From the IMG/VR virus record IMGVR_UViG_2703718787_000017: a DNA stretch of 64,000 nucleotides; one strand, given 5' to 3'. This document shows, piece by piece, positions 1,725 to 25,272 of the stretch. The DNA is from a virus (lineage: Duplodnaviria > Heunggongvirae > Uroviricota > Caudoviricetes). Position numbers and translations under genes: made by a program. The first letter of the stretch is position 1. Every line of letters begins with the position of its first letter. Below the pieces are notes generated by a model. That model searched no databases and had not been told where the DNA came from. It saw only the letters and a list, made by a program, of their open reading frames with translations.

Positions 1725-1749
1725 CCCGGCCATTGTGCCGGGTTTTTTT
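1725..1749 (+). terminator. rho-independent terminator-like hairpin (CCCGGC-cattgt-GCCGGG followed by T7 run)
   Basis: GC stem plus U-run between the 421-aa gene and the giant gene; may act as attenuator. Confidence 0.5.
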
Positions 1750-1760
1750 ATGGAGTCTGT

Positions 1761-7700: not shown

Positions 7701-10142
7701 GCGCATATCGCGAAAATCAACCCGAAAATGCCGGACGGCGGTTCGGGGATGACCAACGCGGAGGCGGCGGAAATCATGCAGCGTGTACGTAACAGCGGCA
7801 AACAGGCACAGTATGACCGTCTGGCAGGGATTGTTGACGATATGCTGGCCCGTCGCCGTGAGCTTATCCGTGAGGCAGGACTGGAAGAGAGCGGCGTGGT
7901 GGATGCCTGGCAGAAAGCCTACCGTTACTACGTTCCCCTGAAAGGGCAGGATGTTGACGGTGTGGTGTCACTGCCACGTACAGGCAAGGGATTCACCATC
8001 GGCGGGCGTGAAAGTAAGCAGGCCATGGGGCGCGCATCCCGCGCACAGTCTCCTTCCACTCAGGCGATACAGGATTTGAGCGAATCACTGATCCGCAATC
8101 GCAAAAATGAAGTGGGTAACGCCTTCCTGAAACTGGTACAGGATAATCCCGACAAGGATTACTGGCAGGTATTCACCGATGACAGACCGGATACCATGCG
8201 GACGATTGCAGAGCGCAAGGACAAGGAAACTGGTGAAACCATTCGCGAAGTTGTCGAACGCCCTGTACCGATGGCAATGATGGCAGACCGGTACTTCACC
8301 ACCAAAAAGAACGGCAAAACGTACTACATCAAACTCCATGATCCGCGCCTGATGCGTGCGATGAAGAATATGGGACCGGAAACCAGTAACGCCGTAATCC
8401 GCACGCTGGGGAAAGTTAACCGCTTCCTGGCAACGGTGAACACGTCGTATAACCCGGAATTCCTGGTCAGTAACTTCATCCGTGACGTACAGACGGCGGT
8501 GATGAACCTGAAGGCGGAGCAGGGAAGGAGCGACGGCAAACTGAAAGGGCTGGATAACTTATCCGCACTGGCTGTGGTGAAAGACAGTCGGTCTGCCATG
8601 TCTGCCGTATACGCCAGTCTGCGTGGTAAAACCCTCACGGGCAACGGTGCGCAGTGGCAGAAGGTGTGGAAAGAGTTTGTTGAGGACGGAGGTAAAACCG
8701 GCTGGTTTAACATGGGTGACCTTGAAGGCCAGCAGAAGGAAATGGATCGCCTTGTATCGCTGGCGAAGGGAGGATGGAAAGGCCAGAGTATCGGTGCATG
8801 GAATTCGTTCCTTAACCTTGTCGAGGATGCCAACGGGGCGGTTGAAAACGCTCTGCGTCTTTCTGCCTATAAACACGCCCGTGATGCCGGTTTGTCACGC
8901 CAGCAGGCGGCGTCTCTTGCCAAAAACATGACGGTGAACTTTAACCGTCGTGGTGAGCAGGGGGCGCTGATGAACTCGCTGTACATGTTCGCCAACGCCA
9001 GTATTCAGGGAACGGCAAATCTGGTGAGAACGCTCGGACATCTTAATGGTGAGGGACCTTTACTGGAGCGCCTTCGCTGGAAGAATCTGAATGTTCCGCA
9101 GAAAATCGCGCTTGCCGCTGTGGGAGCGGGTTATCTGCTTGGCTCGCTTAACCGCAGCGTGGCGGGTGAGGATGATGACGGGGTTAACTGGTATGACAAA
9201 GTACCGTCTCATGTGAAAGAGCGTAACCTCGTCATTATGAAATCGGTGTTCGGGGGCAAGGCCGGAGAGTACTGGAGTATTCCTCTGCCTTACGGGTACA
9301 ACGTTTTCTTCCTGCTTGGTCACACAGCCGAAGGGGTGGCAGCGGGCGACCTGACCGCTTCACGTGCTGCCGGTAATGTTGTTGGTGGTGTGCTTGGGGC
9401 ATTCAGTCCTGTGGGCAGTGAAACGTCGGAAACACTGTCCGGGGCATTGCTGAAAAATGCAGCGCCGACCATTCTGCGTCCGTTTGCGAACCTTGCCATG
9501 AATGAAAACTTCATGGGGGCGCAGATTTACCAGGAGAACATGCCGTTTGGTACACCAAAACCTGACAGCCAGCTGGGAAGACGTTCAACGCCAGAAGCGT
9601 ACAAGGCGTTTGCATCCTGGCTGAATGCGTTCTCAGGTGGCAGCCAGTACCGTCCCGGCGCGGTGGATATCACACCGGAATCGCTGAAATTCTGGATTGA
9701 CTATATCTCCGGAGGGACAGGGCGCTTCATTTCCAAAACCACGGATGCGGCGGTGAAATCGCTGAATGGTATTGATATACCGGAACAGCAGGTGCCCTTC
9801 CTGGGGAAAATTTCGGGGGAGGTGATGCCGTATGCAGACCAGCAGAAGATGTACGACCGGATGACAGAGATTGCGCAGTATCACGCAGAGCTGAAGAGTC
9901 TGACCGGTGCAGAAAGAACGGCGTTCATTGACGAGAACAACGGAAAATTGTCGATGAACGGGCTTATGCAGGATACCCGGAAGAGACTGAAGGATTTGCG
10001 TAAACAGCGTGATGCCATTTATGCCGACAGTTCTCTCAGTCTGGCGCAGCAGGCGGCGATAGTGAAATCGGTAGAGCGGGATATGAAGGTTGCCGTGGAT
10101 CGCTTTAACCGCGAGTACAACAAAAAAGTGGGAGTGGATTAA
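1761..10142 (+). CDS. giant multidomain 'polyvalent-type' protein (about 2793 aa) with HExxH zincin-like motif (HEWFH at 5610-5624), second H-E-x-x-H-H motif near 6411, Pro/Glu-rich low-complexity linker and Gly/Ala-rich N- and C-terminal segments
   Basis: Single uninterrupted 8.4-kb frame; start ATG at 1761 preceded by GGAG; HExxH motif read directly; domain architecture otherwise unresolved without profile search. Confidence 0.8.
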   Translation: MAYSEEQRPEAQLGNQNRNSLNIQQPGETDSYEAFFSDPNRWKDNSTSFSLGDVLPTMGKGFAQSVRGTGEMARGLGDAMIQSPVKTGARILNEFSRMGLPGVATVQDIFAGGSRGADEVIDTLPDGKNAVTDTVGKGLKATGKAVSDGAEATDEWLTGKMSPGAVRALNTPMTEGYDDSAVWVAKGVNLIGALVPDMVAGGVAKKVGDVTLRKMLTAGLEKKYIAAGMQPERATALAAEAVDKKMPDLFQAGLITHSTASAQGQSAMAAADAVLNADYSELAQSPKFQQTFLSIDADPQHAQLTDRQKMDLAKERVADEVRAQLATDPELLAVNAMAAKLGDAQLFNLVTRGTAKTVKSGIVRNATEQGAINAAQGGYSRYQENTALRETAGMDVSPWEGVADATIEGAAFGAAMGAPSGAVAGYRGRRQAAEEAAMRDAETVQQDDAAPQPESVDPVAQHRESMQGMNREQLLEQYADADMATEGDASAAHRREAASQLLNELDEQAKRQAVMNELKAKPRSELLEEYRRLSQKEERTETEEQQFQAIREVIRPQQEVTPEAQSQPENAEDGNGSIYPTVRFRDPNEVRIEINGNGASRPAERIEKVRPDNRYFTDEKSAMGSDVFRNAAATGLKPSVVKKGETQYAVEMDNPAFSEDVATETINTLADGERIADADPMEQPAFMRDPRFRGFTGDDTEVQARLARGNVPTAEELVRSQMAEGDAGPTAQELTERPRLPAPGDIHPGQGYPLPGEVARTPDENQAGRGGRFTTTGEVKGQSFQKGQALAPENAAGRQGETLEGEMVRRGLPSPDAQNATAPVREGLPAPDITHNVRMPQPDQLPRTVRNSLPELAQQAEVRRQAGGNRDIPQPETIAPESETTVATDREATVRGGEVRGKKIEDFGEEIKGAAKHRYAQLAETLGKTLEDRDYVTQPLSKLFPKPDYAKLASEGADADTLAMIALYRSDIPVKTKHNTAGWGESVKKVRHSVSEMLNGTVSAKRLAEWMEGRMPSRYADTWQLLRTLPPSQMDKASAYRVVSGVYQAAGGKRYDPPQKLYSLRNKDNKGSNLFFSESRDELLAKAKVWFAEQEEKSQAKGDEKTAPSPDDKIRFDVYRNTRSGDIFIAYGKNKMRVRGGFKSASDARKYIDLHRDELVRHVKEMREISREEQRNATNRDRTGPERRKGDVSPEQFSDAFGFRGVQFGNYVESPRRQADLNRAYDSLHDLADVLNVPTKALSLNGRLGLAFGARGKGKAAAHYESGEVAINLTKGNGPGALAHEWFHSLDNYFGRYDVSSDGKITSGGDFMTEAQRVRRIFKDGRYVDAEYPVRQEVYDAFKGVIQAIKNSDMPRRSALLDEVRSKPYWSTDVEMAARAFERYVQDKARMAGVENDYLVNIRKAPEHNTDNTYAYPTNAELDGGIREAFDHLFRTLKTRETDKGVAFYSRKGMTRTPEGNLISDVNRSAEAKGSPVPQVEAVARGVMSGIKDSDLTVRVVKSQKEAEALAGESFDGYGRVHAFYRPDKREIVLVADNIPDGQTVREKLRHEIIHHAMEHVVTPAEYQTIIKTVLKTRDSDNATIREAWRKVDASYGKESPEVQAGEFLAHMAEKQPNKFVAAWERVVALVKGVLRRTGLLKPTELNDIRLVRETIRTLGQRVREGYTPREDGVGASSQYSRSGKPDPFKVPEGEGERYRDDLARMMKSLRTTDLTVNIGRTPPVLRHLGAPDLPLVISRDTVRKATNGVKHVVPMDVIERLPELMHDPDAIYRSATERNAVVMLLDAVDKNGDPVVSAVHMKATQKLLEVNRIASVYGTENGKKLKSMETAGLTLYRREKLNPDGSLYRGLQLPKDEHSRQGSADKILYPEDIRKGPYYSRTSSLTPEETIASRFVRQMQDKFQVLKAVQENIRKTGGKIDDSNNAYMAEELFHGKAENDLNVMKERYVQPLAKLLADYKIAQADLDEYLYARHAPERNAHIAKINPKMPDGGSGMTNAEAAEIMQRVRNSGKQAQYDRLAGIVDDMLARRRELIREAGLEESGVVDAWQKAYRYYVPLKGQDVDGVVSLPRTGKGFTIGGRESKQAMGRASRAQSPSTQAIQDLSESLIRNRKNEVGNAFLKLVQDNPDKDYWQVFTDDRPDTMRTIAERKDKETGETIREVVERPVPMAMMADRYFTTKKNGKTYYIKLHDPRLMRAMKNMGPETSNAVIRTLGKVNRFLATVNTSYNPEFLVSNFIRDVQTAVMNLKAEQGRSDGKLKGLDNLSALAVVKDSRSAMSAVYASLRGKTLTGNGAQWQKVWKEFVEDGGKTGWFNMGDLEGQQKEMDRLVSLAKGGWKGQSIGAWNSFLNLVEDANGAVENALRLSAYKHARDAGLSRQQAASLAKNMTVNFNRRGEQGALMNSLYMFANASIQGTANLVRTLGHLNGEGPLLERLRWKNLNVPQKIALAAVGAGYLLGSLNRSVAGEDDDGVNWYDKVPSHVKERNLVIMKSVFGGKAGEYWSIPLPYGYNVFFLLGHTAEGVAAGDLTASRAAGNVVGGVLGAFSPVGSETSETLSGALLKNAAPTILRPFANLAMNENFMGAQIYQENMPFGTPKPDSQLGRRSTPEAYKAFASWLNAFSGGSQYRPGAVDITPESLKFWIDYISGGTGRFISKTTDAAVKSLNGIDIPEQQVPFLGKISGEVMPYADQQKMYDRMTEIAQYHAELKSLTGAERTAFIDENNGKLSMNGLMQDTRKRLKDLRKQRDAIYADSSLSLAQQAAIVKSVERDMKVAVDRFNREYNKKVGVD

Positions 10143-10265
10143 CAGAAATGGCCCCGTACGGAAGTGCGGGGCTGATTAAGGAATAAACACACATTAACCT
10201 GTAATAACCGGAGCTATTAACATATAGTCAGAAAGAGTATTTCATGTGAGACAGAGAGCCGATTT

Positions 10266-10457
10266 ATGTTTAATGAAGAAAAAGTTGCGCAAATGGCAGC
10301 GTATTTGCTGAAAAAGCATGGCGGATCTATGCGTTTCATTAAGCTGATGAAGCTGATGTATCTCTCTGACCGCAAAGCAATGGAGTCTTTAACCGGGAAG
10401 GGGAGAGGTTTGAATGCTCCCCCACAATTCCCCGGCATCAAATCTCCATGCAGGTGA
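10266..10457 (+). pseudogene. possible N-terminal remnant of a DUF4065/Panacea-like gene
   Basis: 63-aa ORF; motif MAAYLLKK...IKLMKLMYLSDRKAME resembles the N-terminus of that family from memory; frame then collapses; weak RBS. Confidence 0.25.
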
Positions 10458-10543
10458 ACTATTTTACCCCCAGCGGCAAATCGCAAAAACAATCAGTGCG
10501 ATCGAAATGGCAGCCACTACAATTGCAAATGCTTCAGGCTAGG

Positions 10544-11470
10544 TCATTGGCTTACCTCCTTCGGCGGTTCTGGTAGCGGCATCCAGTGGGTTACTTCTTT
10601 GAGATGCAGGTCTTCGCCATCACCGTCATCCCAAGTGGGATTGCCATCATTAAACCAGTCGCCATATACGCCGACCTGAGTGTTGGGGATGCTTGGTGGG
10701 TAGTTGTTTTTAAAGTCAGCTGCTAACACATAGTATTGTCGCTCTCCCATTTCTGGCATTCGATCACTACAGCTTATCCAACCATCCGGAGTTACCGGAA
10801 CTGGCGGAACGGCTGTTTGCTCTCGAACGTCATTAGTCGCTATCGGTTCTGCTGCCAACTGACTGGCATATTTGTTAATGGTAACGATAAGCTCTTGCTC
10901 AGCCTCATCCAGACAATCACCGATACCTCGCCTGTCACCGTCAAAATCATCGAAATCGGCACGAATCTTGGCAACCTTCTGGATTGCGGACAACACCTCA
11001 CTAGGAATTACCGGATAGTTGGTTGACGTTTCCGCGATTTCCCGAAAATTATTGGTTGACGAATTCTTGTTTTCCCGAAAGTTTCCGGACTGAAGCATGG
11101 CGGCGCGGCAGGCATTCCAGCCTCTTACCTCTGCAATAGCGGCAACCGCATCAACCGCGTACATGCTAAGAGGATTAGGCATTGGTTTTTCTTCCGGTAC
11201 TACTGGTGCTGGAGGGGCGGCGTAAATGCCCTCTATCACTAAATGTTTGCGCTCAAAATCATCTGGCTCTCGATGATATACGTAACTCCAATCACCAAGG
11301 TTATCATTGCGCCTGCAACGGAAACCTATCGGCTCGGCTTCCAGCGCTGCCAGAGCAATTCGTGCCAGTTCTTCCGCTTCTTCTGCTGGCAGTACAACGT
11401 TGCTACCAGGTCCGTATGTTTCGCGCCACTGCTTGATTGTCAGTAGTCGCTCTTTGGTAATAGTGATCAT
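10544..11470 (-). CDS. lambdoid early-region protein with C-terminal DUF551-like segment (…HWMPLPEPP)
   Basis: 308-aa ORF; C-terminal motif typical of phage DUF551 proteins; start overlaps upstream gene stop (coupling). Confidence 0.7.
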   Translation of the reverse strand: MITITKERLLTIKQWRETYGPGSNVVLPAEEAEELARIALAALEAEPIGFRCRRNDNLGDWSYVYHREPDDFERKHLVIEGIYAAPPAPVVPEEKPMPNPLSMYAVDAVAAIAEVRGWNACRAAMLQSGNFRENKNSSTNNFREIAETSTNYPVIPSEVLSAIQKVAKIRADFDDFDGDRRGIGDCLDEAEQELIVTINKYASQLAAEPIATNDVREQTAVPPVPVTPDGWISCSDRMPEMGERQYYVLAADFKNNYPPSIPNTQVGVYGDWFNDGNPTWDDGDGEDLHLKEVTHWMPLPEPPKEVSQ

Positions 11471-11982
11471 GCCGCGTTTCCTTCTTTCTTATTAACAATT
11501 ACACCGTCATATATTTCATTAAGGTGCCCTCTCAACTCCATGCGCCTTAATGCAGATAACATGTAATCGCATTCAACCTGCTTATTCCCAATAAAAGGTT
11601 TATCTTCAGGGTTACCCCAACAGCAATTCCCCTTGGGCCATCCATGTACTTTCCGTACTCTTCCGTTAACAACGTGAAGTAATCCCCAGCCAGGTGGTAA
11701 ATCCTCAATTGAAATAATTCCCGGCTCACTAATAAAGAATCGCCAGTCGCCCATTCCAAGAGACGGATTTTTACGAAAACGCTTTTTTCTATCTGCCAAC
11801 AAGTCAGCACGAGAACATTTCGCCTCTATCAGGCATGATGCTGAATTTCTGAATCCCATAGCATCTGGCTGTTCTCCGGTACTGGTTACAGCTATAAAGC
11901 GGTCATGAAAACAAACCTTGAACCCGCTGCGCTTAAGGAACTTGTACGCAATCTGACAGAGTTCGCGGTGTGTTAACGCCAT
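11467..11982 (-). CDS. hypothetical phage protein (about 171 aa)
   Basis: ORF in operon with flanking minus-strand genes; start ATG 1 nt after upstream stop. Confidence 0.55.
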   Translation of the reverse strand: MALTHRELCQIAYKFLKRSGFKVCFHDRFIAVTSTGEQPDAMGFRNSASCLIEAKCSRADLLADRKKRFRKNPSLGMGDWRFFISEPGIISIEDLPPGWGLLHVVNGRVRKVHGWPKGNCCWGNPEDKPFIGNKQVECDYMLSALRRMELRGHLNEIYDGVIVNKKEGNAA

Positions 11983-11983
11983 A

Positions 11984-12934
11984 TCACTCTCCTTTGATGC
12001 GAATGCCAGCAAGCCAGTTTCTTATGCCGATATATTCAGCGTTCCGGAAACCGCTTTTTACATATATAAATGGCAAGCGAAGATTGTGACCATTGACTGC
12101 CAGGTAGTCTTTACAACCCTGTTCGGTGAAACAGCAGGTAACGAATTCATCAATATCTTTCACAGCAACGCGCCGCCATTTTTCTGGTGGCTCTCGAAAG
12201 TTTTCATGAAGTAGCTCGAGACGACGACTATGGCGTTTATTGGCTTCATTGCCATCTTCGTCAACCCAGACAATCCGGTCATGGTCATAATCAGCATCAA
12301 CAACGATTTCGCGCTTTTGATACACACAAAACATGGGATCTGACGTTATTCGATTGTCCTGTGTTCGAATATTTTCACCGATGATGCCAAACGAATCTGG
12401 TGCAGATTTTGTCTGCATCTCTTCGATACGTTCAGCCATCGCAGCACACTCTTCAAAGTTGCTTAATGCTTTTCGCTCCCATTCGGCGCATTGTTTTTCC
12501 AGTTCTGCTATGCGCTTACTTCCATCCGCGATTACTCCCTCGTAATATTCACGCTGCTCGTTGAGTTTTGATTTTGCTGTTTCAAGCTCAACGCGCAGCT
12601 TCCCTACCGTAAGCGCAATATCCTCGTTCTCCTGGTCGCGGCGTTTGATGTATTGCTGGTTTCTTTCCCGTTCATCCAGCAGTGCCAGCACGGTAGCCGG
12701 ATTGGCTGCGGCGATGAATTCAGCATTGGCCTGCTGTTCCATTTGGAAATCTTCATCGAAACCGCTTTCAGGATGTGCTCCTTCAATTCTGCAAATGGGA
12801 ATATATCCAGCAGCCTCGCGATGAATTAGTGCATCATCACCATCAAATCGGTTCTCTCCATATTCGAGCGACCACTCACCACGCGTTGCTTTTTCTGCCT
12901 TTTCACGCAGTACCTGATAGTTAATCTCGCTCAT
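11984..12934 (-). CDS. Ea22-like lambdoid early protein (coiled-coil; N-terminus MSEINYQ…ATRGEWS)
   Basis: N-terminal sequence resembles lambda Ea22-family proteins from memory; GGAG upstream of ATG at 12934. Confidence 0.65.
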   Translation of the reverse strand: MSEINYQVLREKAEKATRGEWSLEYGENRFDGDDALIHREAAGYIPICRIEGAHPESGFDEDFQMEQQANAEFIAAANPATVLALLDERERNQQYIKRRDQENEDIALTVGKLRVELETAKSKLNEQREYYEGVIADGSKRIAELEKQCAEWERKALSNFEECAAMAERIEEMQTKSAPDSFGIIGENIRTQDNRITSDPMFCVYQKREIVVDADYDHDRIVWVDEDGNEANKRHSRRLELLHENFREPPEKWRRVAVKDIDEFVTCCFTEQGCKDYLAVNGHNLRLPFIYVKSGFRNAEYIGIRNWLAGIRIKGE

Positions 12935-13205
12935 TTTTCTCTTCGCTCCGGTATACAAGAATTACAACGTCACCTCTGCTAATTACGCGAGCTGGATCTC
13001 CTGGCTCCATGCTGTCAATCCCGAAGGCTTCGGAAAACGCATTCATTGCCTTCTGGCGTTGATCCTGCTTACGGCATTTATTCCATTTTTTCAGTAACAA
13101 CAGCGATAGCCACCGCCCGGCGCAGAACATAATGTAAAAATAACCAAGAAGCGCCAGACCTGTGTTGAGGGCCGTATCGATCGTTATAGTGGTGTCTATG
13201 CTCAC
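12921..13205 (-). CDS. small hypothetical protein with one hydrophobic helix
   Basis: 94-aa ORF overlapping neighbours by a few nt in an operon-like arrangement. Confidence 0.45.
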   Translation of the reverse strand: MSIDTTITIDTALNTGLALLGYFYIMFCAGRWLSLLLLKKWNKCRKQDQRQKAMNAFSEAFGIDSMEPGDPARVISRGDVVILVYRSEEKNERD

Positions 13206-13423
13206 TTCACACCTCTCTGTTTGTTGATAAGTTCAATATCCTGCTGGCAACTGGCGCAAGTTCGGCATCCGCGAACAGCCTGGCGTCGCCGCTCATCTAT
13301 CGGATCGCCACACTCGCAACAATGAGTAGCAGATGGGGCATTACTTTCGGATTTGTATTTTTGCAGGGAGAGATTGCGCTGCAATTCTTCGATTTCAGCG
13401 GCATTGTCGATGATATCTGCCAT
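13202..13423 (-). CDS. TraR/DksA-family C4 zinc-finger protein
   Basis: 73 aa with CxxC…CxxC (CCECG…CRTCASC) pattern typical of phage TraR-like proteins. Confidence 0.7.
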   Translation of the reverse strand: MADIIDNAAEIEELQRNLSLQKYKSESNAPSATHCCECGDPIDERRRQAVRGCRTCASCQQDIELINKQRGVK

Positions 13424-13470
13424 TTTCCTTTCCTTCAGGCATGAAAAAAGGAGCCGAAGCTCCTTTGGTA

Positions 13471-14094
13471 TCAGAATTCAAATTGTCTTGCTCTTAGTTG
13501 CGCTAGCATACTTCTGGCCCTATGCACCATATAGTTGGCGGGATCAAGTTTTGCTGCTTCGCGGAGCAATGTGTCGCGAGTCCGGTTGGTTATATGACGA
13601 GTCTCGTAGGCCAGATCAAACAGTTTCCCGTAGTAATCAGAATTCAGTTCTCTCATGACGGGGTATAGCTGCTTACTGAGTTGTTGTGCTTTTTCCATCC
13701 AGAGTTGAACGTAGCAGAGCAGGATGATGTCTTCTGCTGTGAATTGCTGCTCAGTTTGTACTGGCTGAATGTTGCGAAGTTTCTTTTCGCACTCGATGAA
13801 GTATCGGCGTATCTGGCGGCCTTTTTCGTTACGTTCAACCATCGCAAGCTCTTTGGCTGTGTCGAGGGTGAGGTGGTAATCCTTGCGGCGGCGGCCTGGA
13901 GTTTTCGCCAAATTTGGCGAAAATAGAATGTAGTCTAAATTTTCTACGAATCCATACTCGTTTAGCTTGGCCCGTATCCAGTTAGAAAAATCTTTACCTA
14001 CCTCTAAAAATCCATGCAAATCACGCGCGTTCACCAGAAGCGTAGGTTCATTTGAGATTGTACCTTCAAACACAGGGATGAGTTGAGTGGTCAT
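13471..14094 (-). CDS. phage antirepressor (AntA-type N-terminal domain plus C-terminal domain)
   Basis: MTTQLIPVF…ARDLH…YHLTLDTAKE motif set; strong RBS AAAGGAGG; upstream in-frame extension rejected. Confidence 0.8.
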   Translation of the reverse strand: MTTQLIPVFEGTISNEPTLLVNARDLHGFLEVGKDFSNWIRAKLNEYGFVENLDYILFSPNLAKTPGRRRKDYHLTLDTAKELAMVERNEKGRQIRRYFIECEKKLRNIQPVQTEQQFTAEDIILLCYVQLWMEKAQQLSKQLYPVMRELNSDYYGKLFDLAYETRHITNRTRDTLLREAAKLDPANYMVHRARSMLAQLRARQFEF

Positions 14095-14343
14095 GATGAC
14101 CTCCTTTGGCTTTTTTCGAGAAATGCCACCACAAAATGTGGTGCCGGGAGGCTCGAAACGGCCCAAAAGATACCGCGGACTTATTCCCCTTGCGGGTGTT
14201 GTATTCGTCGCCCTCCCGACATTGATCGGGGATGTGACCGCACACTGTGCTATCACTGAATAACAGGCATAAAAAATCCAACACTGACGGGGTTGGTTTA
14301 ATCCGCTTTTGGGAGGTTTTCGAGGCCTCGGCGCGGAGTATAG

Positions 14344-14631
14344 TCAGTATTGGACGCAGTCGTCAACCATCGCCGTTTCTTTGGCTGTGTCGAGGGTGAG
14401 GTGGTAATCCTTGCGGTTGTGACCGCCTCTACCAGATGTTTGCTTTCCCAAATTGGAAAGCAAAATATAGTCTTGATTTTCAATGAATTCGTATTCTGAA
14501 ATGCGATTTGTAATCCATGCCGCAAACACCTTTTTCACGCCTAAAAAAGCATGCAGATCGCGGGCATTGCAGAGTAGGGCTGTTTCGTTGTCGATAGTGC
14601 CGTTGAATACGGGGATGAGTTGATTAGCCAT
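14344..14631 (-). CDS. truncated antirepressor paralog (AntA-type N-domain only, 95 aa)
   Basis: MANQLIPVF…YHLTLDTAKE; shares a near-identical 40-nt stretch with the downstream ant gene; RBS AGGAG. Confidence 0.65.
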   Translation of the reverse strand: MANQLIPVFNGTIDNETALLCNARDLHAFLGVKKVFAAWITNRISEYEFIENQDYILLSNLGKQTSGRGGHNRKDYHLTLDTAKETAMVDDCVQY

Positions 14632-14957
14632 AATTATGACTCCTGACGTTTTAGTATTGACTGCCACCTTAGTGGGGTGGCGGGCTTCAACTACCGCGTC
14701 AGACGGCGGAGCGTATTTCCCGAAAGGGTATTGTATTAGGCTCTCTCGACCCGCCATTGATATGGCGATACCTGTAAACAGGCATAAAAAAGCCGCAAAG
14801 CTATCGGGTGCGGTTGACCGCTGACGTTGTAGTGCAGTCAGTATGCGATAGCTCTGGCAGATTTGTCAAATCGTGCAGTAACATCCTTTTCTTCCTTGCC
14901 ATTTCTCAATGATGACAAAGGGTGGATTCGGATTGGTATTGGGACAAAAGTGAGACA

Positions 14958-14992
14958 CACAAAGCTTTGCATCGGCTTACAAAGCTTTGCAT
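14958..14992. promoter_or_regulatory. two copies of ACAAAGCTTTGCAT (each containing the perfect 10-bp palindrome CAAAGCTTTG) spaced 20 bp centre to centre; putative operator pair upstream of the antirepressor genes
   Basis: Exact repeat and palindrome read from sequence; two-helical-turn spacing. Confidence 0.35.
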
Positions 14993-15036
14993 GTTTTTCA
15001 ATGTTGGGACGTGTGAGCGCAGAAATGACGGGCTAT

Positions 15037-15150
15037 CTAATTGATTTTAAACGATACGTAACCAACTTTAAAATCTTTGCACGCCAGTTCGCAGGTTTTA
15101 CAGCCAGTACAGCGGCTGGAATCGATAAAAAATCCATATTGTGTGGTCAT
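15037..15150 (-). pseudogene. ynfG: ynfG 5' fragment: first ~28 codons (MTTQYGFFIDSSRCTGCKTCELACKD…) then out-of-family sequence and stop
   Basis: N-terminal 4Fe-4S ferredoxin-type motif CxxCxxC matches YnfG start; RBS GGAG 10 nt after ynfF stop; ORF ends after 37 codons instead of about 205. Confidence 0.7.
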
Positions 15151-15160
15151 GGGCTACTCC

Positions 15161-17587
15161 TTAAACCTTTTCGATCTGGACAAGATTGCTGTGCGACGGG
15201 TTTCCCTTTGCCAGCGGTGAAGGGCGGTGAGAGGTCAGAATATTGATACTGCCGCCGTGATCGACCCGGTCACCAAACATATCCGCTTTAAGCCACGCAC
15301 CTTGCCCGATGGCGGTAACGCCAGGCAGAATACGCGGAGTCACTTTTGCGGCAATCAGCATTTCTCCATTATTGTTAAATACCCGCACGGTATCGCCATG
15401 ACGGATACCGCGTGCCTGAGCATCAATGGGGTTGATCCACACCTCTTGTGGGCAGGCCTGCTGTAACACATCAATATTGCCGTAGCTGGAGTGGGTACGC
15501 GCTTTGTAGTGGAAGCCCGTTAACTGCAGTGGATAGGTTTTCCGCAGGGGATCGTCCCAGCCATCAAAACCTGGGGTATACGCAGGAAGGGGATGAATAA
15601 TTTCATCTTTTTTCAATTCCCAGGTATCTGCAATCTTCGCCAGTCGTTCAGAATAAATTTCGATTTTCCCCGAAGGTGTTTTCAACGGGTTTGCCTGTGG
15701 ATCTTCACGGAATGCGCGGAAAGCGACGTAGTGTTCTTCCGGGCATTTTTTCTTAAAGATCCCGGTCGTTTTCATCTCCTCGTAGTCGGGCATCTCAGGG
15801 TTACGTTCCTTCGTTTTCGCATGGAGATATTTGATCCATTCATGCTGACTGCGACCTTCAGTAAAGGTTTGATAAACGTCTGGTCCTAAGCGTTTGGCGA
15901 CTTCACTCAGCATCCAGTAGATGGGTTTGCGTTCAAATTTTGCTGAGGTTGCGGGTTGGGCGAGGATCACATAGCCCATATTCCCTGCAGATTCATGAGA
16001 GATAAGGTCTTCTTGCTCTGTTGGCATCAGGTCGGGCAACAGGATATCGCAATACTTAGCCGAGGCCGTCATGAAGTGGTCAATGCCAACAATCATCTCG
16101 CACTTGCTGTCATCCTGAAGCACCTCATGGGTGTGATTGATGTCGCCATGTTGATTGATCAATGTGTTACTGGCGTAGCACCATAAAAACTTGATGGGGA
16201 CATCCAGTTTTTCTTTTCCACGAACACCATCACGGGTCGCGGTCATTTCCGTACCATGGTCGATGGCATCTGTCCATGTAAAGACGGAAATCTGCGTTTT
16301 AACAGGATTCTCAAGCATCGGGAACCATTCTACCCCCAGATCCCAGCTACCTTCGCGTACACCTGAGTTGCCGCCGTTTATGCCGACGTTACCGGTGAGA
16401 ACGGAAAGCATGGCAATAGCGCGGGACGTTTGCTCGCCGTTGGAATGTCGTTGTGGCCCCCAACCCTGACAAATATAAGCAGGTTTTGCTGAACCGATCT
16501 CTCGTGCCAACTGGATAATTTTTTCTGCCGGGATGCTGGTGATTTTTGCTGCCCATTCCGGCGTTTTAGCTATGCCGTCAGGCCCTTCGCCCAGAATATA
16601 GGCTTTATAATGCGCGTTACGTGGTGCGTTGGCGGGCAGCGTTTTTTCATCGTAACCAACACAATATTTGTCGAGAAATGGCTGATCGACCATGTTTTCA
16701 GTAATCAGTACCCAGGCAATCGCACAGGCCAGTGCGCCATCGGTGCCAGGGCGAATGGGCAGCCATTCATCTTCACGCCCGGCAGCAGTGTCGTTATAAC
16801 ATGGATCGATGACGATCATGCGTGCGTTTGAACGTTCGCGGGCTTGCTCGACGTAGTAAGTGACACCACCGCCGCTCATCCGCGTTTCTGCCGGGTTATT
16901 TCCGAACATAACGACCAGTTTCGTATTGGCGATATCATCCGGGCTGTTGCCATCATTGGCACCGAACATATAACTCATTGCGGCACTGATCTGTGCGGTA
17001 CTGTAGCTGCCATAGCGACTGAGAAAACCACCGCAAGAGTTCATCAGACGGTACGGGACGTTTGAGTTGGTGATGTTTCCGCCATCTACGCCTGTTCCGT
17101 ACAGGACATGTACAGCCTCATTGCCGTAATCTTTCAGGATCCGCCGAAGATTATCACTGATGGTATCCAGGGCTTCGTCCCAACTTATCCGTTCAAATTT
17201 ACCTTCACCGCGCTTGCCGACGCGCTTCATGGGATATTTCAACCTATCAGGATGATTCATCCGTCGGCGGATAGAGCGCCCGCGTAAACACGCTCGAACC
17301 TGATGGTTACCGTAGACGTCGTCACCTGTCGTATCAGACTCCACCCAGTACACGGTGTCATCTTTCACATGCAAACGTAACAGACAGCGGCTCCCGCAGT
17401 TAACGGTGCAGGAACTCCAGACCGCTTTCTCTTCTACCGGAGCCTCTGCCGCCCGGACCATTTGGGAAAATGGCAGAGTGAAAGCACTGCTTGCCAGCGC
17501 AAGACTGCCAAGTGCGGAGGTTTTCATCAGACTTCTACGGCTGATTTCAGCCTTCATGAGCGCCTCTGTGGTATGGATTTTCATCAT
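15161..17587 (-). CDS. ynfF: DMSO-reductase-family molybdoenzyme catalytic subunit YnfF, with twin-arginine signal (SRRSLMK)
   Basis: 808-aa ORF; Tat motif; CTVNCGSRC Fe-S motif; paralogous to the split ynfE. Confidence 0.95.
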   Translation of the reverse strand: MMKIHTTEALMKAEISRRSLMKTSALGSLALASSAFTLPFSQMVRAAEAPVEEKAVWSSCTVNCGSRCLLRLHVKDDTVYWVESDTTGDDVYGNHQVRACLRGRSIRRRMNHPDRLKYPMKRVGKRGEGKFERISWDEALDTISDNLRRILKDYGNEAVHVLYGTGVDGGNITNSNVPYRLMNSCGGFLSRYGSYSTAQISAAMSYMFGANDGNSPDDIANTKLVVMFGNNPAETRMSGGGVTYYVEQARERSNARMIVIDPCYNDTAAGREDEWLPIRPGTDGALACAIAWVLITENMVDQPFLDKYCVGYDEKTLPANAPRNAHYKAYILGEGPDGIAKTPEWAAKITSIPAEKIIQLAREIGSAKPAYICQGWGPQRHSNGEQTSRAIAMLSVLTGNVGINGGNSGVREGSWDLGVEWFPMLENPVKTQISVFTWTDAIDHGTEMTATRDGVRGKEKLDVPIKFLWCYASNTLINQHGDINHTHEVLQDDSKCEMIVGIDHFMTASAKYCDILLPDLMPTEQEDLISHESAGNMGYVILAQPATSAKFERKPIYWMLSEVAKRLGPDVYQTFTEGRSQHEWIKYLHAKTKERNPEMPDYEEMKTTGIFKKKCPEEHYVAFRAFREDPQANPLKTPSGKIEIYSERLAKIADTWELKKDEIIHPLPAYTPGFDGWDDPLRKTYPLQLTGFHYKARTHSSYGNIDVLQQACPQEVWINPIDAQARGIRHGDTVRVFNNNGEMLIAAKVTPRILPGVTAIGQGAWLKADMFGDRVDHGGSINILTSHRPSPLAKGNPSHSNLVQIEKV

Positions 17588-17644
17588 TACTCACTTATTG
17601 CTTTTCAAACAAAATGTCATGCCAGAATTTATGATTGTCGTGGG

Positions 17645-18675
17645 TTATATTTTTTCGATCTCGACCAGATTAGTGTGCTGCGGGTTTCCCTTCGCCAGTG
17701 GTGAAGGGCGCAGAGTGGTTAGCGTATTCACACAGCCGCCATGGTCGATTTTATCGCCAGACATATTGGCCTCGTGCCAGGCTCCCTGGCCCATAGCGCT
17801 AACTCCAGGGAGAATACGTGGTGTTACTTTGGCTGGTAGCCGAACTTCGCCACGATGGTTAAACACCCGCACCATATCGCCGTTGGCAATCCCACGTTTC
17901 TGCGCATCTATAGGGTTGATCCACACCTCCTGACGGCAGGCAGCCTTCAGGAGATCAATATTGCCGTAGGTCGAGTGAGTACGGGATTTGTAATGGAAAC
18001 CAAACAGTTGCAGTGGGAAGGTTCTACGTTCAGGGGAGTCCCAGCCTTCAAAGGTAGAGGCATAAACTGGCAGTGGGCTTATCACTTCATCTTTTTCCAG
18101 TTCCCAGGTACGGGCAATTTCCGCCAGCTTGCTGGAATAAATTTCAATCTTACCGGAAGGTGTTTTAAGTGGATTTGCCTCGGGGTCGTCACGAAATGCT
18201 TTGTAGGCGACAAAATGACCATTGGGATCTTTACGCTTATAGATACCCATTTTTTTCAGTTCGTCGTAAGACGGTAACGCCGGATCTTTGGCAAGCATTT
18301 TGGCGTACAGATGTTGTAACCATTGTTCCTGCGTGCGACCTTCAGTGAACTTTTGATAGACGTCAGGTCCAAGACGTTTCGCGACTTCACTCAGGATCCA
18401 GTAAATCGGTTTGCGTTCGAATTTTTCGCTGGTGACAGGCTGGAGGAAAATGAGATATCCCATGTTACCGGCGTAGTCGTTAGGAATAATATCTTCCTGC
18501 TCAACGGTCATCAGGTCTGGCAGCAGAATGTCGGCATATTTTGCCGATGAGGTCATAAAGTTTTCGATGACCACAATCATTTCGCATTTCGATTCGTCCT
18601 GCAGAATTTCATGCGTTTTGTTGATGTCAGAATGCTGATTAACGAGGGTATTTCCCGCGTAGTTCCAGATGAACT
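17645..18675 (-). pseudogene. ynfE: ynfE 3' portion (C-terminal about 340 codons) separated from its 5' portion by the island
   Basis: Translation parallels YnfF C-terminus; native frame begins at …IKFIWNYAGNTLVNQ; upstream part of the ORF is island sequence. Confidence 0.85.
18661..18675 (+). repeat. left copy of 15-bp direct repeat AGTTCCAGATGAACT (att core / target duplication)
   Basis: Exact match to 25258-25272. Confidence 0.8.
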
Positions 18676-18736
18676 CCATTGTCAGACGGATGGATGGACT
18701 TGAAGTAGTTGACTCAATGCTACTTAAGGTCCTGAT

Positions 18737-20341
18737 ATGACTGACATTAACCATGATAATACTGTATGTCCATCCAGTTCTTTCTCTGGGTCTCCCTATC
18801 TGTATCAGCAAGTCTGCACCTCAAGTCCTGACACAAGGCTGACACAAATCAATATACTCAGCGTAGCTAAGCCTCAGTTAGTCCGTAGAGCCAATGGTCG
18901 ATATACTATCCGCTTCAGACTCAAGGGACAGACCATCCCGTTTCTTTCAGTATCGACCCGAAGCACAGACAGGAGAGTAGCCACAATGCGTCAGAGAGAG
19001 CTTGCAGCCACAGCTAAGACATTCCTACTAGACAAGCCTGAAGTTTCGCTACAGGAGCTTACAGAGCACCTCCGGTCTATGGCTGAGCAGTTCCTGACAG
19101 ACGCCAGTGATGACTACTGGAATGGACTTGAGGTCGCTACTCTGGTGGACGAGAAGTCCAACCTGAAGGAGCTAGCCGCTACGCAAGCCTTGAGTCTGGA
19201 CCAGCAGAAGGGCATAAGGTTAGCGCTTGAAGTCCTGACCGCAGCACAGCAGAGGGTAGACACTGGTGATGCCTCTGGTCTGATTAAGCTGATTGATGAT
19301 AATAACCATACTGATTACTCAACTATAGGCGACTATACGTCCATTCTGAAGAATGAGCAGGGGGATAGACCAGCAGTTTTCACACAGGTTACTGCTCCTT
19401 GCAGTCACAGCGAGCGTCAGCCATCTGTGGTTTTTTCAAGCCTAGTGTCCTCGCTGCTGGCTGAGAAGGTCCAGACCCTGAAGTCCTCCAGCTACAAGGA
19501 CCTGTCGTCCTCACTGAATACCGTCTCTCGGTTCTTACCTGAAGACATGGACCTGATGTCCCGCTCTGAGTGGCTGGCTGTCAGGGACTCTATGCTTGCT
19601 TCTGAGGTGAGACCATCGACAATCAACAAGCTGCTGACCAAAGCGAAGATGTGTCTCGATTATGGCCTGATGAATGGGCAACTTGAGGGCCGCAACCCTA
19701 TTGAACGGATGAAGCTGACCAAGGATATCGACTCCAAGCGCAGAGCGTTCACAGACGAGGAGCTGGATGGACTTCTTGTCCGGGTAGAGGCTGAGTATCA
19801 GTTCACACGACATACCGCTCACACGACCTCTGAGGCTCGCAGGTGGGCGACTCTGGTCTCTGTGGTCACTGGCGCTCGGTCTGCTGAGGTCTGCCACCTG
19901 ACTAAACGTGACATTGTAACCTTGGACAATGGACTGGTCTGTATCGACATCAATGAAGATGGGGGCGGGAAGTCCGTAAAGAACAAGCATTCAGTCCGAC
20001 TTGTACCGCTGACCGATGGCGCTTATGGGTTTGACCTGAAGTCCTTCCTCGAATGGGTAGACATGCAGCCTGACGAGGGTCCTCTCTTCGGGATGACTCC
20101 AAGCGCATACTCTAGCTGGTTTAACTCAAGGGTCCTCACAGAGGCTCTCCCAGACGCTGAGAACGTCTCTCTACACAGTCTGAGACATTGGCTGGCGACC
20201 CGGATGAAAGAGCGTGGAGTCAATCTGGTGGACGCTCAGGGCATCTTAGGTCACAGCAGTCAGTCCATTACGTATGACCTGTACGGGAAAGGACATGCAG
20301 TTGGTAGGCTGGCTGATGTGCTGAAGACAGCTTTACTTTAA
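18737..20341 (+). CDS. tyrosine recombinase (integrase), 534 aa with extended N-terminal region
   Basis: C-terminal catalytic pattern: …GARSAEVCHL… (Arg), HSLRHWLATR (His-x-x-Arg), ITYDLYGK (Tyr); gene sits just inside the left repeat. Confidence 0.85.
   Translation: MTDINHDNTVCPSSSFSGSPYLYQQVCTSSPDTRLTQINILSVAKPQLVRRANGRYTIRFRLKGQTIPFLSVSTRSTDRRVATMRQRELAATAKTFLLDKPEVSLQELTEHLRSMAEQFLTDASDDYWNGLEVATLVDEKSNLKELAATQALSLDQQKGIRLALEVLTAAQQRVDTGDASGLIKLIDDNNHTDYSTIGDYTSILKNEQGDRPAVFTQVTAPCSHSERQPSVVFSSLVSSLLAEKVQTLKSSSYKDLSSSLNTVSRFLPEDMDLMSRSEWLAVRDSMLASEVRPSTINKLLTKAKMCLDYGLMNGQLEGRNPIERMKLTKDIDSKRRAFTDEELDGLLVRVEAEYQFTRHTAHTTSEARRWATLVSVVTGARSAEVCHLTKRDIVTLDNGLVCIDINEDGGGKSVKNKHSVRLVPLTDGAYGFDLKSFLEWVDMQPDEGPLFGMTPSAYSSWFNSRVLTEALPDAENVSLHSLRHWLATRMKERGVNLVDAQGILGHSSQSITYDLYGKGHAVGRLADVLKTALL
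18829..18850. repeat. two direct copies of TGACACAA (putative integrase arm-type sites, left end)
   Basis: CTGACACAAGGCTGACACAAAT; same motif appears three times near the right end. Confidence 0.45.
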
Positions 20342-20554
20342 GTAGGAAGACCCAAGGTGTAGACCATATACGGCTTGATGGTTGAACCTTGGGTCGCTGA
20401 AGTCTGACTGAAGTTAGGGAGGGTGATAATAATCATAATCCCTCCTGACTATAGGCCCACTGGTTCGCCTTCGGCTGTCCGACTCTAAGTCTGTATGTGG
20501 TCTTATTTAAACTGGTTCCCTAACTCCAGTACTCCAAATTCCTATGGTCTCCTC

Positions 20555-20760
20555 TTGACATTCCTGTTTAACTGTGAGTCGCCTCTGGTCTCTCTTTATA
20601 TATACTTCCTTAATTCCTGAGGCGTCTTTAGTCCTTGACATTCGGTCCAACCTGTGAGTCACATCCGGTCCTCCCTCTATATATATACTTCCTTAATTCC
20701 TAGGGTCGCCTTAATCCTTGACATCCAGTCCAACCTGTGAGTCACATCCTGTCGCTAGCA
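20555..20760 (+). repeat. about 80-bp tandem repeat, 3 units, each with TTGACA, inverted repeat TGTGA-G-TCACA and a TATATATA block; candidate host-RNAP promoter/operator array
   Basis: TTGACA at 20555, 20635, 20718; units align over most of their length; third unit diverges at its 3' end. Confidence 0.6.
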
Positions 20761-20799
20761 AGCTAGCTGTCGCGCTACTGTATGCATCACCAGTGGTGG

Positions 20800-20822
20800 A
20801 CTTGATTATCACTATAGGGGAA
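20800..20822 (+). promoter_or_regulatory. T7-group single-subunit RNAP promoter-like 23-mer ACTTGATTATCACTATAGGGGAA (predicted +1 at G 20817)
   Basis: Positions -8 to +3 identical to T7 consensus TCACTATAGGG; upstream -17 to -9 differs from T7/T3/SP6; lies 30 nt upstream of an RBS and ATG. Confidence 0.5.
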
Positions 20823-20851
20823 CCAACTAATTCAACTACAGGAGATACTCT

Positions 20852-21220
20852 ATGGCACGACCAATCGCAACTCACGACAACACGTTCACCAAAGCCTACT
20901 TGCAGCAGCACTGCGGGGACCTGCTGTCATTCGATGGTCAGGGCGACCTGAGTGGTTGGCTGGATGATGTCCTTACTGGTGCTGGTCGCCTGAACGAATC
21001 AATGGCAAGCAATACCAAGCCTGTCAGCCCATACTTGATTCTGACCCAACTACTAACGCACGACACATTAACTGTAAGCGCTGTGCAGGAGTCCCTGAGC
21101 CGTAAGCGTGTCGCCTTGGGTGAACCTATGGTTTCAACTCGCTACGCTCGCTACGTCTATGCTACCGTCGTCAGCGCCAGTAAATCCGTCCAGTACCACG
21201 CCAGTAAAGCTGGTTCATGA
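20852..21220 (+). CDS. hypothetical protein (122 aa), first gene downstream of promoter-like site 1
   Basis: ORF with AGGAG 8 nt upstream of ATG; no family recognised. Confidence 0.6.
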   Translation: MARPIATHDNTFTKAYLQQHCGDLLSFDGQGDLSGWLDDVLTGAGRLNESMASNTKPVSPYLILTQLLTHDTLTVSAVQESLSRKRVALGEPMVSTRYARYVYATVVSASKSVQYHASKAGS

Positions 21221-21228
21221 TTACGGAC

Positions 21229-21251
21229 CCTAAACTATCACTATAGGGAAG
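21229..21251 (+). promoter_or_regulatory. second T7-group RNAP promoter-like 23-mer CCTAAACTATCACTATAGGGAAG (predicted +1 at G 21246)
   Basis: Shares ATCACTATAGGG with site 1; same -8 to +3 core as T7 consensus. Confidence 0.5.
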
Positions 21252-21781
21252 AGCAGCCTCCACCTCTGGTCTTGATGCGTCAAGTTATGCGGAAGCTCTC
21301 CCGACATTAAGTATCTCTCCTAAGCAATCAAGGTCTGTGACCGCCTCTGTCATTCCTGCATCCCGTGAGTGTTCTTCTGTCGTCTCGGTTAGTAGCTCGT
21401 CTACTCACTACACTGACTTAAGTCTATCAGCACCTACCAGATGCACGCCTGACATGCGGTCCCGCCTTATATGCACATGGAGAACATGGTCCAAATGTAG
21501 CCTACGAAATTTTCGTAAGCTTCGGGCAGGACCAAGGCTGGTAGAAGTCTAACCAACCCAGAAAACGGGTTTGTTAAAAAGATTAACATGGGTCACTTAG
21601 GGCAGGACGCTTCTCTACCGTCCCGCCTTTATTGACACCTGCAGGAAATCATGGTCATCCCCGACCAATCAAATCAACCCTATTCACTTTCGTAAGCACT
21701 TTCGGCGGCTCCATTTGGTAGCGCTGAATAGGTGTGGAGACCCGCAGGGGAACGAGAGTGCTTTCTAAAGGAGCTACCTTA
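21252..21781 (+). other. 530-nt apparently untranslated leader with internal repeats (TCCCGCCTT x2; TTCGTAAGC-N-CTTCGG x2); possible structured RNA, processing sites or replication origin
   Basis: No convincing ORF with RBS (the 71-aa ORF at 21337 is Ser-rich with no SD); repeats read directly. Confidence 0.3.
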
Positions 21782-22873
21782 ATGAACATCCATAAATTCA
21801 TCGACATGAACGAAGTCATCGCCAGCAATCATCCTCTTGCCAAAGGTACCACTGACAGCGTAACGCAGGTCATCGTGTCACACCTGAAGTCCGGCGATGC
21901 AGGTATCGACATCCTGAATGCGCCTAAGGCCGCTAGCGATATGTCTGCCAGCTTCCTGAATGACTTGAAGAGCAAGTATCGTGTCGTGGCTGGTCATAAC
22001 TCTGAGGGTCACATTGATGCATGGCTGGCGCATAAGCACAGCGGACGCCGGGTGACGACTAAAAGCAATGACAAGGGTTATCGCGCTGTGAGCGTGAATG
22101 GTCGCCCGTATCAGGAGCACCGCCTTATCGTGGCCCTGTTCTATGATGTGGCACTGCCGGGCTGGGTGGTAGTTAATCACGCTGTGTCCTGCACCATTTG
22201 GAACGAAGGCAAATCAAACCATCCGTTCAACCTCCGATTAACGACATCATATGGTAACCAGCTTGATAAGAAGGTCCGCGAAGGTGTTCGCAATAAGTTC
22301 ACCGGGTACTACTTCGATGAATATCGTGGCAAGTGGCGCGTCCAGATGAAGCGGCCTTTCGCTGGTGGTCCGCAGCATTTCGGCATGTACGACACCGAAG
22401 CTGAGGCCTACATTGTCCGCTGCGCTGTCCTCCACCAGCATCTTGGTGCGTTCTGGGCGATGACCACCGGGGAATCCGGTCTCGTGCCCCGAGTCAAACC
22501 TGACGGTTCTCTGGTACTGCCTACTGAGCATGGTTACGATTGGGCGGAAAACCTGCCTTATCCTGAGGACTGGGACGACGAGTTCAAGGCCCGGCTGGAG
22601 GAGATGAAGCTGTACTGGGACGCATATCATGTGTTCGGTATTGAAGACGAAGAATACTTCGGCGACTGTGTGTCAGGGCTTGATGTGAACGCAGTAGTGT
22701 TCAACGGCGTGCCTGCCATTATCGACATCACAGAAGGACTTCCGGTGTCATATGCTCACTGGTTCGGACCAAGCCAACGCTTCGAGTTCACCAACTACTA
22801 CCAGCGCTGCATTCACGCCTGTGACCTTGATGCGGAACCTGAAGAGGAAGACTGGATGGAGAACGATTTCTGA
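21782..22873 (+). CDS. HNH endonuclease with AP2-type DNA-binding domain (homing-endonuclease-like)
   Basis: YQEHRLIVALFYD…VVNH motif (HNH) followed by RLTTSYGN…YYFDEYRGKWRVQM…FGMYDTEAEA (AP2-like); RBS AAAGGAG. Confidence 0.75.
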   Translation: MNIHKFIDMNEVIASNHPLAKGTTDSVTQVIVSHLKSGDAGIDILNAPKAASDMSASFLNDLKSKYRVVAGHNSEGHIDAWLAHKHSGRRVTTKSNDKGYRAVSVNGRPYQEHRLIVALFYDVALPGWVVVNHAVSCTIWNEGKSNHPFNLRLTTSYGNQLDKKVREGVRNKFTGYYFDEYRGKWRVQMKRPFAGGPQHFGMYDTEAEAYIVRCAVLHQHLGAFWAMTTGESGLVPRVKPDGSLVLPTEHGYDWAENLPYPEDWDDEFKARLEEMKLYWDAYHVFGIEDEEYFGDCVSGLDVNAVVFNGVPAIIDITEGLPVSYAHWFGPSQRFEFTNYYQRCIHACDLDAEPEEEDWMENDF

Positions 22874-23085
22874 TGACAATTAAACAGCATATCGACCCTC
22901 GCACCGATATCGGCAGGGCAACACTTCGTTATCGTGGTCTGCCTACTCGTCATCTTCTGTCAATGCTGGGGATGGGTACTGATTCATCCGAGCGCCCTTA
23001 CTACAATCGAGACGAGCTGATAGCAATGCTGGTGGACCGTGATTTGAATAATCAGTTGCGTCGAGCCTTTGCTAAGCAGTCCTGA
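22873..23085 (+). CDS. hypothetical protein (70 aa)
   Basis: ATG overlaps stop of upstream gene (TGATG coupling). Confidence 0.5.
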   Translation: MTIKQHIDPRTDIGRATLRYRGLPTRHLLSMLGMGTDSSERPYYNRDELIAMLVDRDLNNQLRRAFAKQS

Positions 23086-23208
23086 CCATACCACCTTAAT
23101 TTAAACACCTTTTGAGAATGACCGATGCGGGGAGACCGTAGGCATAACTGTGTCTGCGATACCGATAGTTCTCACCTTCTCAAGAGGAGTAATTACTATG
23201 TCTAGCAA

Positions 23209-23707
23209 AGCTAGTGCGTTATTCAACAACAACGACTGGAAACTGTCTGTCACCGACATCAATCTCTATGAAAATACTGTGAATCTGGATGGGCAGTCCT
23301 ACCCGTTGTCTCTGGCTATCAAGACCCTCATTCCGGGCTACCTGTCAGGCTTACCGTCCACCAGCAGCGCGGCGATGGAGCTGTTAGAGGCTCTGGCTGA
23401 AGCTGGTGTAGCTATTGGCAACTTCTTCAGTAATGACCTGATGACCGCCTATGGTCGCCGCCAGCAGAACAAGCGAGCTGAGGCTGAGCGTATCGCTAAA
23501 GAGCAGCGCATTCAGGCCGAGCGCATGCGTGAAGAGAACATGACTGATGCAGAGTGGCAGAAAGAGCTACAGCGCCGCGAACAGGTCAAAGCTGAACGCC
23601 GGACCTATGGTGAGAACCTCCGCAGTGCTACCCATTCCGCTGGTCGCTCCCGTGCCGCTATTGTCGCTGACATTGAGTCAGGCGGTAACTGGATGGACAG
23701 CCTCTAA
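23209..23707 (+). CDS. hypothetical protein (166 aa) with charged coiled-coil C-terminal half
   Basis: RBS AGAGGAG 9 nt upstream of ATG; no family recognised; scaffold-like composition is speculation. Confidence 0.6.
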
Positions 23708-23781
23708 GACAGACACACAAGTGGTCCTGACCTGATGTCGGGACCCACAGTATCTAAAACTAATTTAGGAGATTGATTATT

Positions 23782-24771: not shown

Positions 24772-24934
24772 GACCATGAGCAGAGGTAAGTCTGGACTGA
24801 ATATCAGCAGGACTTCAGGTGGTGGATTATCAATGTAATTAATAACTATGGTCTGGACTTCGGTCTGGACCTTATTAGCGAAGTTATCCACAGCTTAATA
24901 ACATATACAACTTTATTCACATTAAGGAGGACGC

Positions 24935-25018
24935 ATGGACCTGCATAAAGTCTATCTTATCGTCTTCCTGTTGAAGCTGGTGCTGGTGGTCGTGCTTACA
25001 GTCAGGGTACGGCTGTGA
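24935..25018 (+). CDS. small hydrophobic peptide (27 aa, MDLHKVYLIVFLLKLVLVVVLTVRVRL)
   Basis: Strong RBS TAAGGAGG 5 nt upstream; single predicted TM helix; too short to be in the ORF track. Confidence 0.3.
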   Translation: MDLHKVYLIVFLLKLVLVVVLTVRVRL

Positions 25019-25128
25019 GCTGGCGAGCAGCTAACGATGAGTTTTGGACCAAAAGTTAGAGACCTGATTCAATACAATTAAGACACCAATGTTCCCCGGT
25101 GCCACCCTGAGTCCAGACCGAGGCCACC

Positions 25129-25140
25129 GGGGGGGGGGGG
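25129..25140. repeat. homopolymeric G12 tract
   Basis: Twelve consecutive G read directly, near the island right end. Confidence 0.9.
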
Positions 25141-25170
25141 CTGACCAGCCGTCTAGACATCCCGTCTAAT

Positions 25171-25204
25171 GACACAAGGCTGACACAAAGCCTGACACAA
25201 AGTC
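25171..25204. repeat. three direct copies of TGACACAA(G/A) (putative integrase arm-type sites, right end)
   Basis: ATGACACAAGGCTGACACAAAGCCTGACACAAAG; mirrors the two copies at 18829-18850. Confidence 0.5.
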
Positions 25205-25257
25205 CTTGACTCAATGCAGGACCTCAGGCCTACTAAGGGTCCGCTTCAAGTCCTTGA

Positions 25258-25272
25258 AGTTCCAGATGAACT
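25258..25272 (+). repeat. right copy of 15-bp direct repeat AGTTCCAGATGAACT
   Basis: Exact match to 18661-18675. Confidence 0.8.

Follow-up and report, generated by a model that had tools for sequence, protein, structure and literature searches.

Why ynfG, which begins in its normal place behind an intact ynfF, should leave the expected reading frame after 28 codons and give way to phage DNA is the question raised by this locus. In the window (the whole stretch of 64 000 nucleotides that was analysed, taken from the IMG/VR virus record IMGVR_UViG_2703718787_000017) the ORF at 15037–15150 on the minus strand translates as MTTQYGFFIDSSRCTGCKTCELACKDFKVGYVSFKIN*, i.e. 37 codons followed by a stop. 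When its translation was compared with YnfG of Escherichia coli K-12, this ORF proved to be a chimeric remnant: residues 1–28 (MTTQ...ACKDFK) are those of the K-12 protein, which goes on as ...DFKDLGPEVSF..., and the following nine codons are phage-encoded and end at the stop. A preliminary description of this DNA had already placed the cut after codon 28 at a border with phage DNA, and the ATG of ynfG 10 nt past the end of ynfF, and both statements agree with our data (ynfF, 15161–17587; remnant, 15037–15150). Its further statement that the gene stops at codon 37 is correct as to the early stop but not as to the codon number, the stop being codon 38. The comparison with an intact ynf locus that the same description had proposed places the beginning of nucleotide homology to the K-12 locus at window position 15066, from where it extends rightwards, the boundary falling at ynfG nt 79–85.

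Full-length YnfG, a DmsB-type four-cluster ferredoxin subunit, carries its Cys groups (C14–C24, C67–C79, C99–C109 and C126–C145) on one polypeptide of ~205 amino acids. By this criterion the 37-amino-acid ORF falls short of a functional YnfG, as it contains one of the four groups, namely the first (C14/C17/C20/C24). Pfam searches of the remnant returned Fer4-type fragment matches only, and the dicluster domain Fer4_11, detected in K-12 YnfG, was not found in the remnant by the same scan. RefSeq labels the remnant in sister genomes as a '4Fe-4S binding protein, incomplete, missing C-terminus'. As a 5′ piece bearing one Cys group of four, cut off from the remaining three, ynfG is probably inactive in the window's strain.

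The DNA on the other side of the break (1–15065, plus strand) is the right-hand 15 kb of a prophage like POCJ13 and 75/02 Stx (Sepvirinae, Diegovirus), in line with the earlier recognition of phage sequence beyond ynfG. The segment aligns over 100% of its length with nt 47643–62699 of POCJ13 (97.6% identity), the latter position being the last base of that record, and over 95% of its length with 75/02 Stx (99.3% identity). The last 400 phage nucleotides are 99.8% identical to POCJ13 62300–62699. From left to right, the segment encodes a 2806-amino-acid LPD5-domain protein of the late region (1722–10142) and a small ORF, followed by leftward genes for DUF551, ead/Ea22, DUF4752, TraR/DksA, Ant and AntA/B. 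The last phage ORF before the junction (14344–14757, minus strand) belongs to the AntA/AntB antirepressor family (PF08346 AntA, E = 4.7e-24; also RefSeq). We considered whether leftward early-type genes (Ant, TraR, Ea22 and DUF551) adjoining ynfG betray a permuted or rearranged phage, and rejected this idea: these genes are arranged alike at the right end of POCJ13, so leftward accessory genes at the right junction are normal and no sign of rearrangement. Lambda has comparable leftward b-region genes to the left of attP. A separate observation concerns the DUF551 gene (10544–11470, minus strand), which in the window is an uninterrupted ORF of 308 amino acids, the same size as POCJ13 gp74, but is annotated by RefSeq as three fragments or pseudogenes in E. 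coli S19-651 despite 99.98% identity; this could be either an annotation inconsistency or an effect of one of four mismatches.

We consider it highly probable that the break is a phage attachment site, 15066–15072 being the attR core of a lambdoid, short-tailed prophage of the POCJ13/75/02-Stx type that entered ynfG by conservative site-specific recombination through its own tyrosine integrase. The core was defined by aligning the joint in the window (attR) and the far prophage junction in JNEC-KY179 (attL) with the intact ynfG of K-12. It reads CTTTAAA on the plus strand and TTTAAAG in the orientation of ynfG (nt 79–85), and these 7 bp are the sole stretch common to attB, attL, attR and attP; they are presumed to be the overlap within which strands are exchanged. 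The bacterial site attB is TGCAAAGATTTTAAAGATCTTGG, with TTTAAAG at ynfG nt 79–85, and the deduced phage site reads ...CGTAACCAACTTTAAAGTTGTTGCTCACC....

The preliminary description had raised the possibility of a different origin, a deletion or rearrangement joint. On such an account the fusion of phage DNA with ynfG was the outcome of an illegitimate event in which the remainder of the gene was lost, possibly together with ynfH-dmsD, and it draws on the fact that neither a phage integrase nor a repeated att sequence is present in the window. We confirmed both absences, the reason for which is that the left edge of the window falls within the prophage, so that only the right 15 kb of ~63.6 kb are included. 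The position of the break speaks against a deletion, since it coincides with the last base of the prophages deposited as POCJ13 and 75/02 and with a 7-bp core that is shared with attL. The same joint, moreover, is present in 79 genomes.

Further evidence came from the left end of the prophage in near-identical genomes. Apart from a 6.58-kb insertion in ynfE, the window runs collinearly with E. coli S19-651 (NZ_CP075852.1), with 10 mismatches in 57.4 kb (99.98% identity). The left end in both S19-651 and JNEC-KY179 reads dmsD - ynfH - 'ynfG (nt 79–618) - core - integrase, and in S19-651 the dmsD-ynfH-'ynfG(nt 79–618)-int segment occupies 5 106 624–5 108 379. This 3′ piece of ynfG is complete, with 180 of 180 translated positions identical to K-12 in the sister genomes, stop included, and the adjoining tyrosine integrase matches the full Phage_integrase domain (PF00589, E = 1.5e-45). 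The two pieces of ynfG in S19-651 and JNEC-KY179 overlap by the 7-bp core and not one base of the gene is missing, which argues for conservative site-specific recombination and not for deletion. With ynfG nt 79–618 and ynfH-dmsD retained beside int in genomes of 99.98% identity, nothing has been lost, and we regard a deletion joint as extremely unlikely.

From core to core the prophage measures 63 651 bp in S19-651 and 63 642 bp in JNEC-KY179. By extrapolation from these genomes, attL of the window's strain is predicted to lie ~48.6 kb to the left of position 1, 63.65 kb from attR. In these closest genomes the prophage carries stx1a, and in JNEC-KY179 stxA1a/stxB1a are annotated downstream of Q; the window's strain probably shares both this left end and stx1a. 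A new N-terminus supplied by the phage to the 3′ piece of ynfG at attL was considered and rejected: 15 codons ahead of the TTT codon of the core the frame is closed by a TAG, after which only GTG codons occur, and Cys group I would be absent in any case. Two complete-genome records, NZ_CP075852.1 (S19-651) and NZ_CP075652.1, start within the Stx1a prophage, at the gene for the terminase large subunit (L003 1–1707). Since these records are rotated to the terminase gene, the prophage wraps around the record origin, and prophage finders run on the linearised sequences could split or miss it.

The phage site itself could be recovered in contiguous form. The deduced attP sequence is CGATACGTAACCAACTTTAAAGTTGTTGCTCACCAC, and the 14 bp of its core, CAACTTTAAAGTTG, form a perfect palindrome. 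An exact-pattern scan with 36 nt taken from across the predicted attP gave an exact match in one IMG/VR viral contig (L007). On this contig the arm seen in the window (13756–15072) abuts the arm on the integrase side (18505–25115 of L002) with an overlap of exactly the 7-bp core, attP contiguity thus being read from a single contig, whose arm, further upstream, has ~90% identity to the window. Such an independent, uninterrupted attP is again at odds with the deletion joint proposed earlier. No contiguous attP was found among the related records in the 'phages' collection, because these were deposited from attL to attR in prophage coordinates. In agreement with this, a synthetic attP composed of the phage side of the window and the phage side of attL matches opposite ends of the POCJ13, 75/02 Stx, PhiR5_2 and phiSTEC1589-Stx1c records.

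The attP arm retained at attR (14858–15065) is non-coding, and its ~208 bp are unchanged across three phages that are only 90–96% identical upstream. Homology to Stx phages with other integrases ends at ~14869–14884, ~190 bp short of the junction, and so the final ~190 bp belong to the ynfG-specific att/int module. Within the arm, two exact 14-nt direct repeats, ACAAAGCTTTGCAT, occur at 14959–14972 and 14979–14992, and these are plausible candidates for arm-type binding sites of the integrase or of an accessory protein. A third copy, 81% similar, overlaps the core and the attB half-site (15066–15081). Judging from the sequence, the arm repeats resemble the attB half-site TGCAAAGATTTTAAAG, perhaps a sign that sites are recognized in an unusual way.

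In the sequence of events that we propose, the phage tyrosine integrase would recombine attP (core CAACTTTAAAGTTG with its conserved arms) with attB (TTTAAAG, ynfG nt 79–85). Integration would split ynfG in such a way that nt 1–85 stay beside ynfF and read nine codons into the phage, giving the 37-amino-acid ORF, and nt 79–618 stay with ynfH-dmsD, adjoining the integrase at attL ~63.65 kb away. Excision of the phage would be expected to restore ynfG exactly. The ynfG of the window's strain is accordingly to be annotated as a pseudogene, because the joint at which it ends is a prophage attR.

How widespread the two junctions are was assessed in 5426 complete E. coli genomes. The attR junction was present in 79 of them, counted as genomes matching most of a 4-kb query, and the int-'ynfG junction of attL in 89 (about 1.5%); the attR junction was matched at 100% identity in four of the 79. 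The stretch 14000–26000 of the window as a whole was matched by none of the 5426 genomes, the best match covering 97% at 95.7% identity; overall, S19-651 came nearest to the window, but without the island in ynfE. These counts bear on the idea that the contig is chimeric, with phage reads wrongly joined to ynfG during assembly. All that can be said for such an artefact is the general risk at repeated prophage sequence, nothing specific to this joint pointing to it. An identical junction in 79 independently assembled complete genomes, four of them at 100% identity, and its agreement with published phage ends and with published PCR of the integration site (PMC4193171) leave an artefact scarcely conceivable. 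The attR carriers include genomes of the O104:H4 lineage of the 2011 outbreak, in which a prophage with this right end (96.8% identity over 88% of the 4-kb query) is accompanied by the same ynfG′ remnant beside ynfF; related phages therefore use the ynfG site in this lineage too.

A further alternative accepts attR as genuine but holds that the prophage has since been remodelled, through partial deletion, for example, or through recombination or inversion that involved a further lambdoid prophage, so that attR is no longer paired collinearly with attL and stx1a. Exchange between prophages is common in STEC, and three integrated elements share the window, one of them a second lambdoid prophage from ~32 kb; the ynfE island is already one difference between this strain and S19-651. 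Outside that island, however, the window is collinear with S19-651 over 57.4 kb with 10 mismatches, and its 15 kb of phage DNA run without interruption and align at full length with POCJ13. We thus think remodelling very unlikely, and retain an ordinary, still collinear prophage as the preferred reading. The third element just mentioned (~32029–64000) is a Qin-like lambdoid prophage adjoining rspB, with int/xis, dicB, ydfD, cspB/cspI, essD and genes for terminase, portal and tape measure proteins. An IS3-family insertion, mapped from S19-651, lies in a tail gene of this prophage at the very end of the window.

The ynf operon to the right of attR has been struck a second time, as the preliminary description had recognized in speaking of two independent elements. 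The gene next to the remnant, ynfF (15161–17587, minus strand), encodes a paralogue of the selenate/tellurate reductase catalytic subunit and is retained, as had been noted; its ORF is intact, at 99.6% identity to the K-12 locus and in accordance with the annotation of S19-651. Mapping to the intact ynfE of S19-651 (35979–38405) resolves ynfE into a 3′ part (17645–18675, minus strand) and a 5′ part (25258–26668, minus strand), separated by an integrative island of 6582 bp (18676–25257, plus strand) that S19-651 lacks. Direct repeats of 15 bp, AGTTCCAGATGAACT, border the island at 18661–18675 and 25258–25272, of which the intact ynfE of S19-651 has one copy, and the island encodes a tyrosine integrase (18737–20341; PF00589, E = 1.7e-13). 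The five cargo ORFs (20852–21220, 21782–22873, 22873–23085, 23198–23707 and 23782–24771) had no Pfam match, and PADLOC returned none for the four submitted to it (all except 22873–23085); RefSeq labels one cargo ORF as 'AP2 domain-containing'. About 20 further complete E. coli genomes have the island, most of them lacking the ynfG phage, and the two insertions are therefore independent. The ynfE and ynfG elements, each with a tyrosine integrase, are 3.6 kb apart and unrelated.

The ynfEFGH-dmsD operon encodes the membrane-bound selenate reductase (PMC5203670). A functional Ynf enzyme is unlikely in the window's strain, because ynfF lies downstream of the island and is without its Fe-S partner. 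From the arrangement in the sister genomes, ynfH-dmsD would be uncoupled from the ynfE promoter, ~70 kb away and in the same orientation as int. The double insertion (island in ynfE, phage in ynfG) thus predicts loss of the Ynf selenate/tellurate reductase, the physiological consequence of which would be minor. It seems to us highly improbable that the ynf operon is a preferred landing zone whose loss is borne, or even favoured by selection, in certain STEC lineages.

What the joint tells about the strain is more practical: it marks a probable lysogen of a Stx1a-converting phage of the POCJ13/75/02 lineage, a lineage that moves between E. coli and Shigella. Both the Stx1a-phage lineage to which this attR belongs and its integration site were known before, and the joint is as such ordinary; the value of the finding is mostly one of annotation, with no new mechanism or type of element. 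By junction PCR, φPOC-J13 was shown to insert in S1742 of S. flexneri 2457T and in the homologue ynfG in MG1655 lysogens (PMC4193171), the S. sonnei 75/02 Stx phage has the same ynfG integration site (PMC5447701) and for RM10410, an isolate from a crow, the Stx1a prophage is given as ynfG-(62,500 bp)-ynfG (PMC10562709).

One of the closest known systems is POCJ13 itself (φPOC-J13; KJ603229/NC_025434; Sepvirinae, Diegovirus), which is Stx1a-converting and integrates into S1742/ynfG, the same target as that of the window phage. Both share the gene order LPD5 protein, DUF551, Ea22, DUF4752, Ant and AntA/B, and in POCJ13 52 nt separate the integrase from the left end of the record, as at attL of the sister genomes. 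They differ by ~2.4% nucleotide divergence, by host (E. coli here, S. flexneri for POCJ13) and by length, the prophage measuring ~63.65 kb in the sister genomes, compared with 62.7 kb for POCJ13; the stx1a region would lie to the left of the window. Phage 75/02 Stx (KF766125/NC_029120), a Stx1-converting phage of S. sonnei, is likewise integrated at ynfG and shows 100% identity, over its first 399 nt, to the arm on the int side of attL in the sister genomes; it differs in host species and in leaving 5% of the window's phage segment uncovered, in mosaic leftward accessory genes. Other Stx prophages disrupt other targets by means of a different integrase/att module, e.g. wrbA in the case of 933W/Sp5, yehV/btsS-mlrA in the case of Stx1 phage, and ompW or dusA in others. 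The principle is the same in wrbA- and yehV-type Stx prophages as in the window phage, namely tyrosine-integrase recombination of attP with attB inside or beside a host gene, and homology to the O157 Stx1 and Stx2 phages extends to the late regions, with 81% of the window's phage segment aligning at 94.5% identity.
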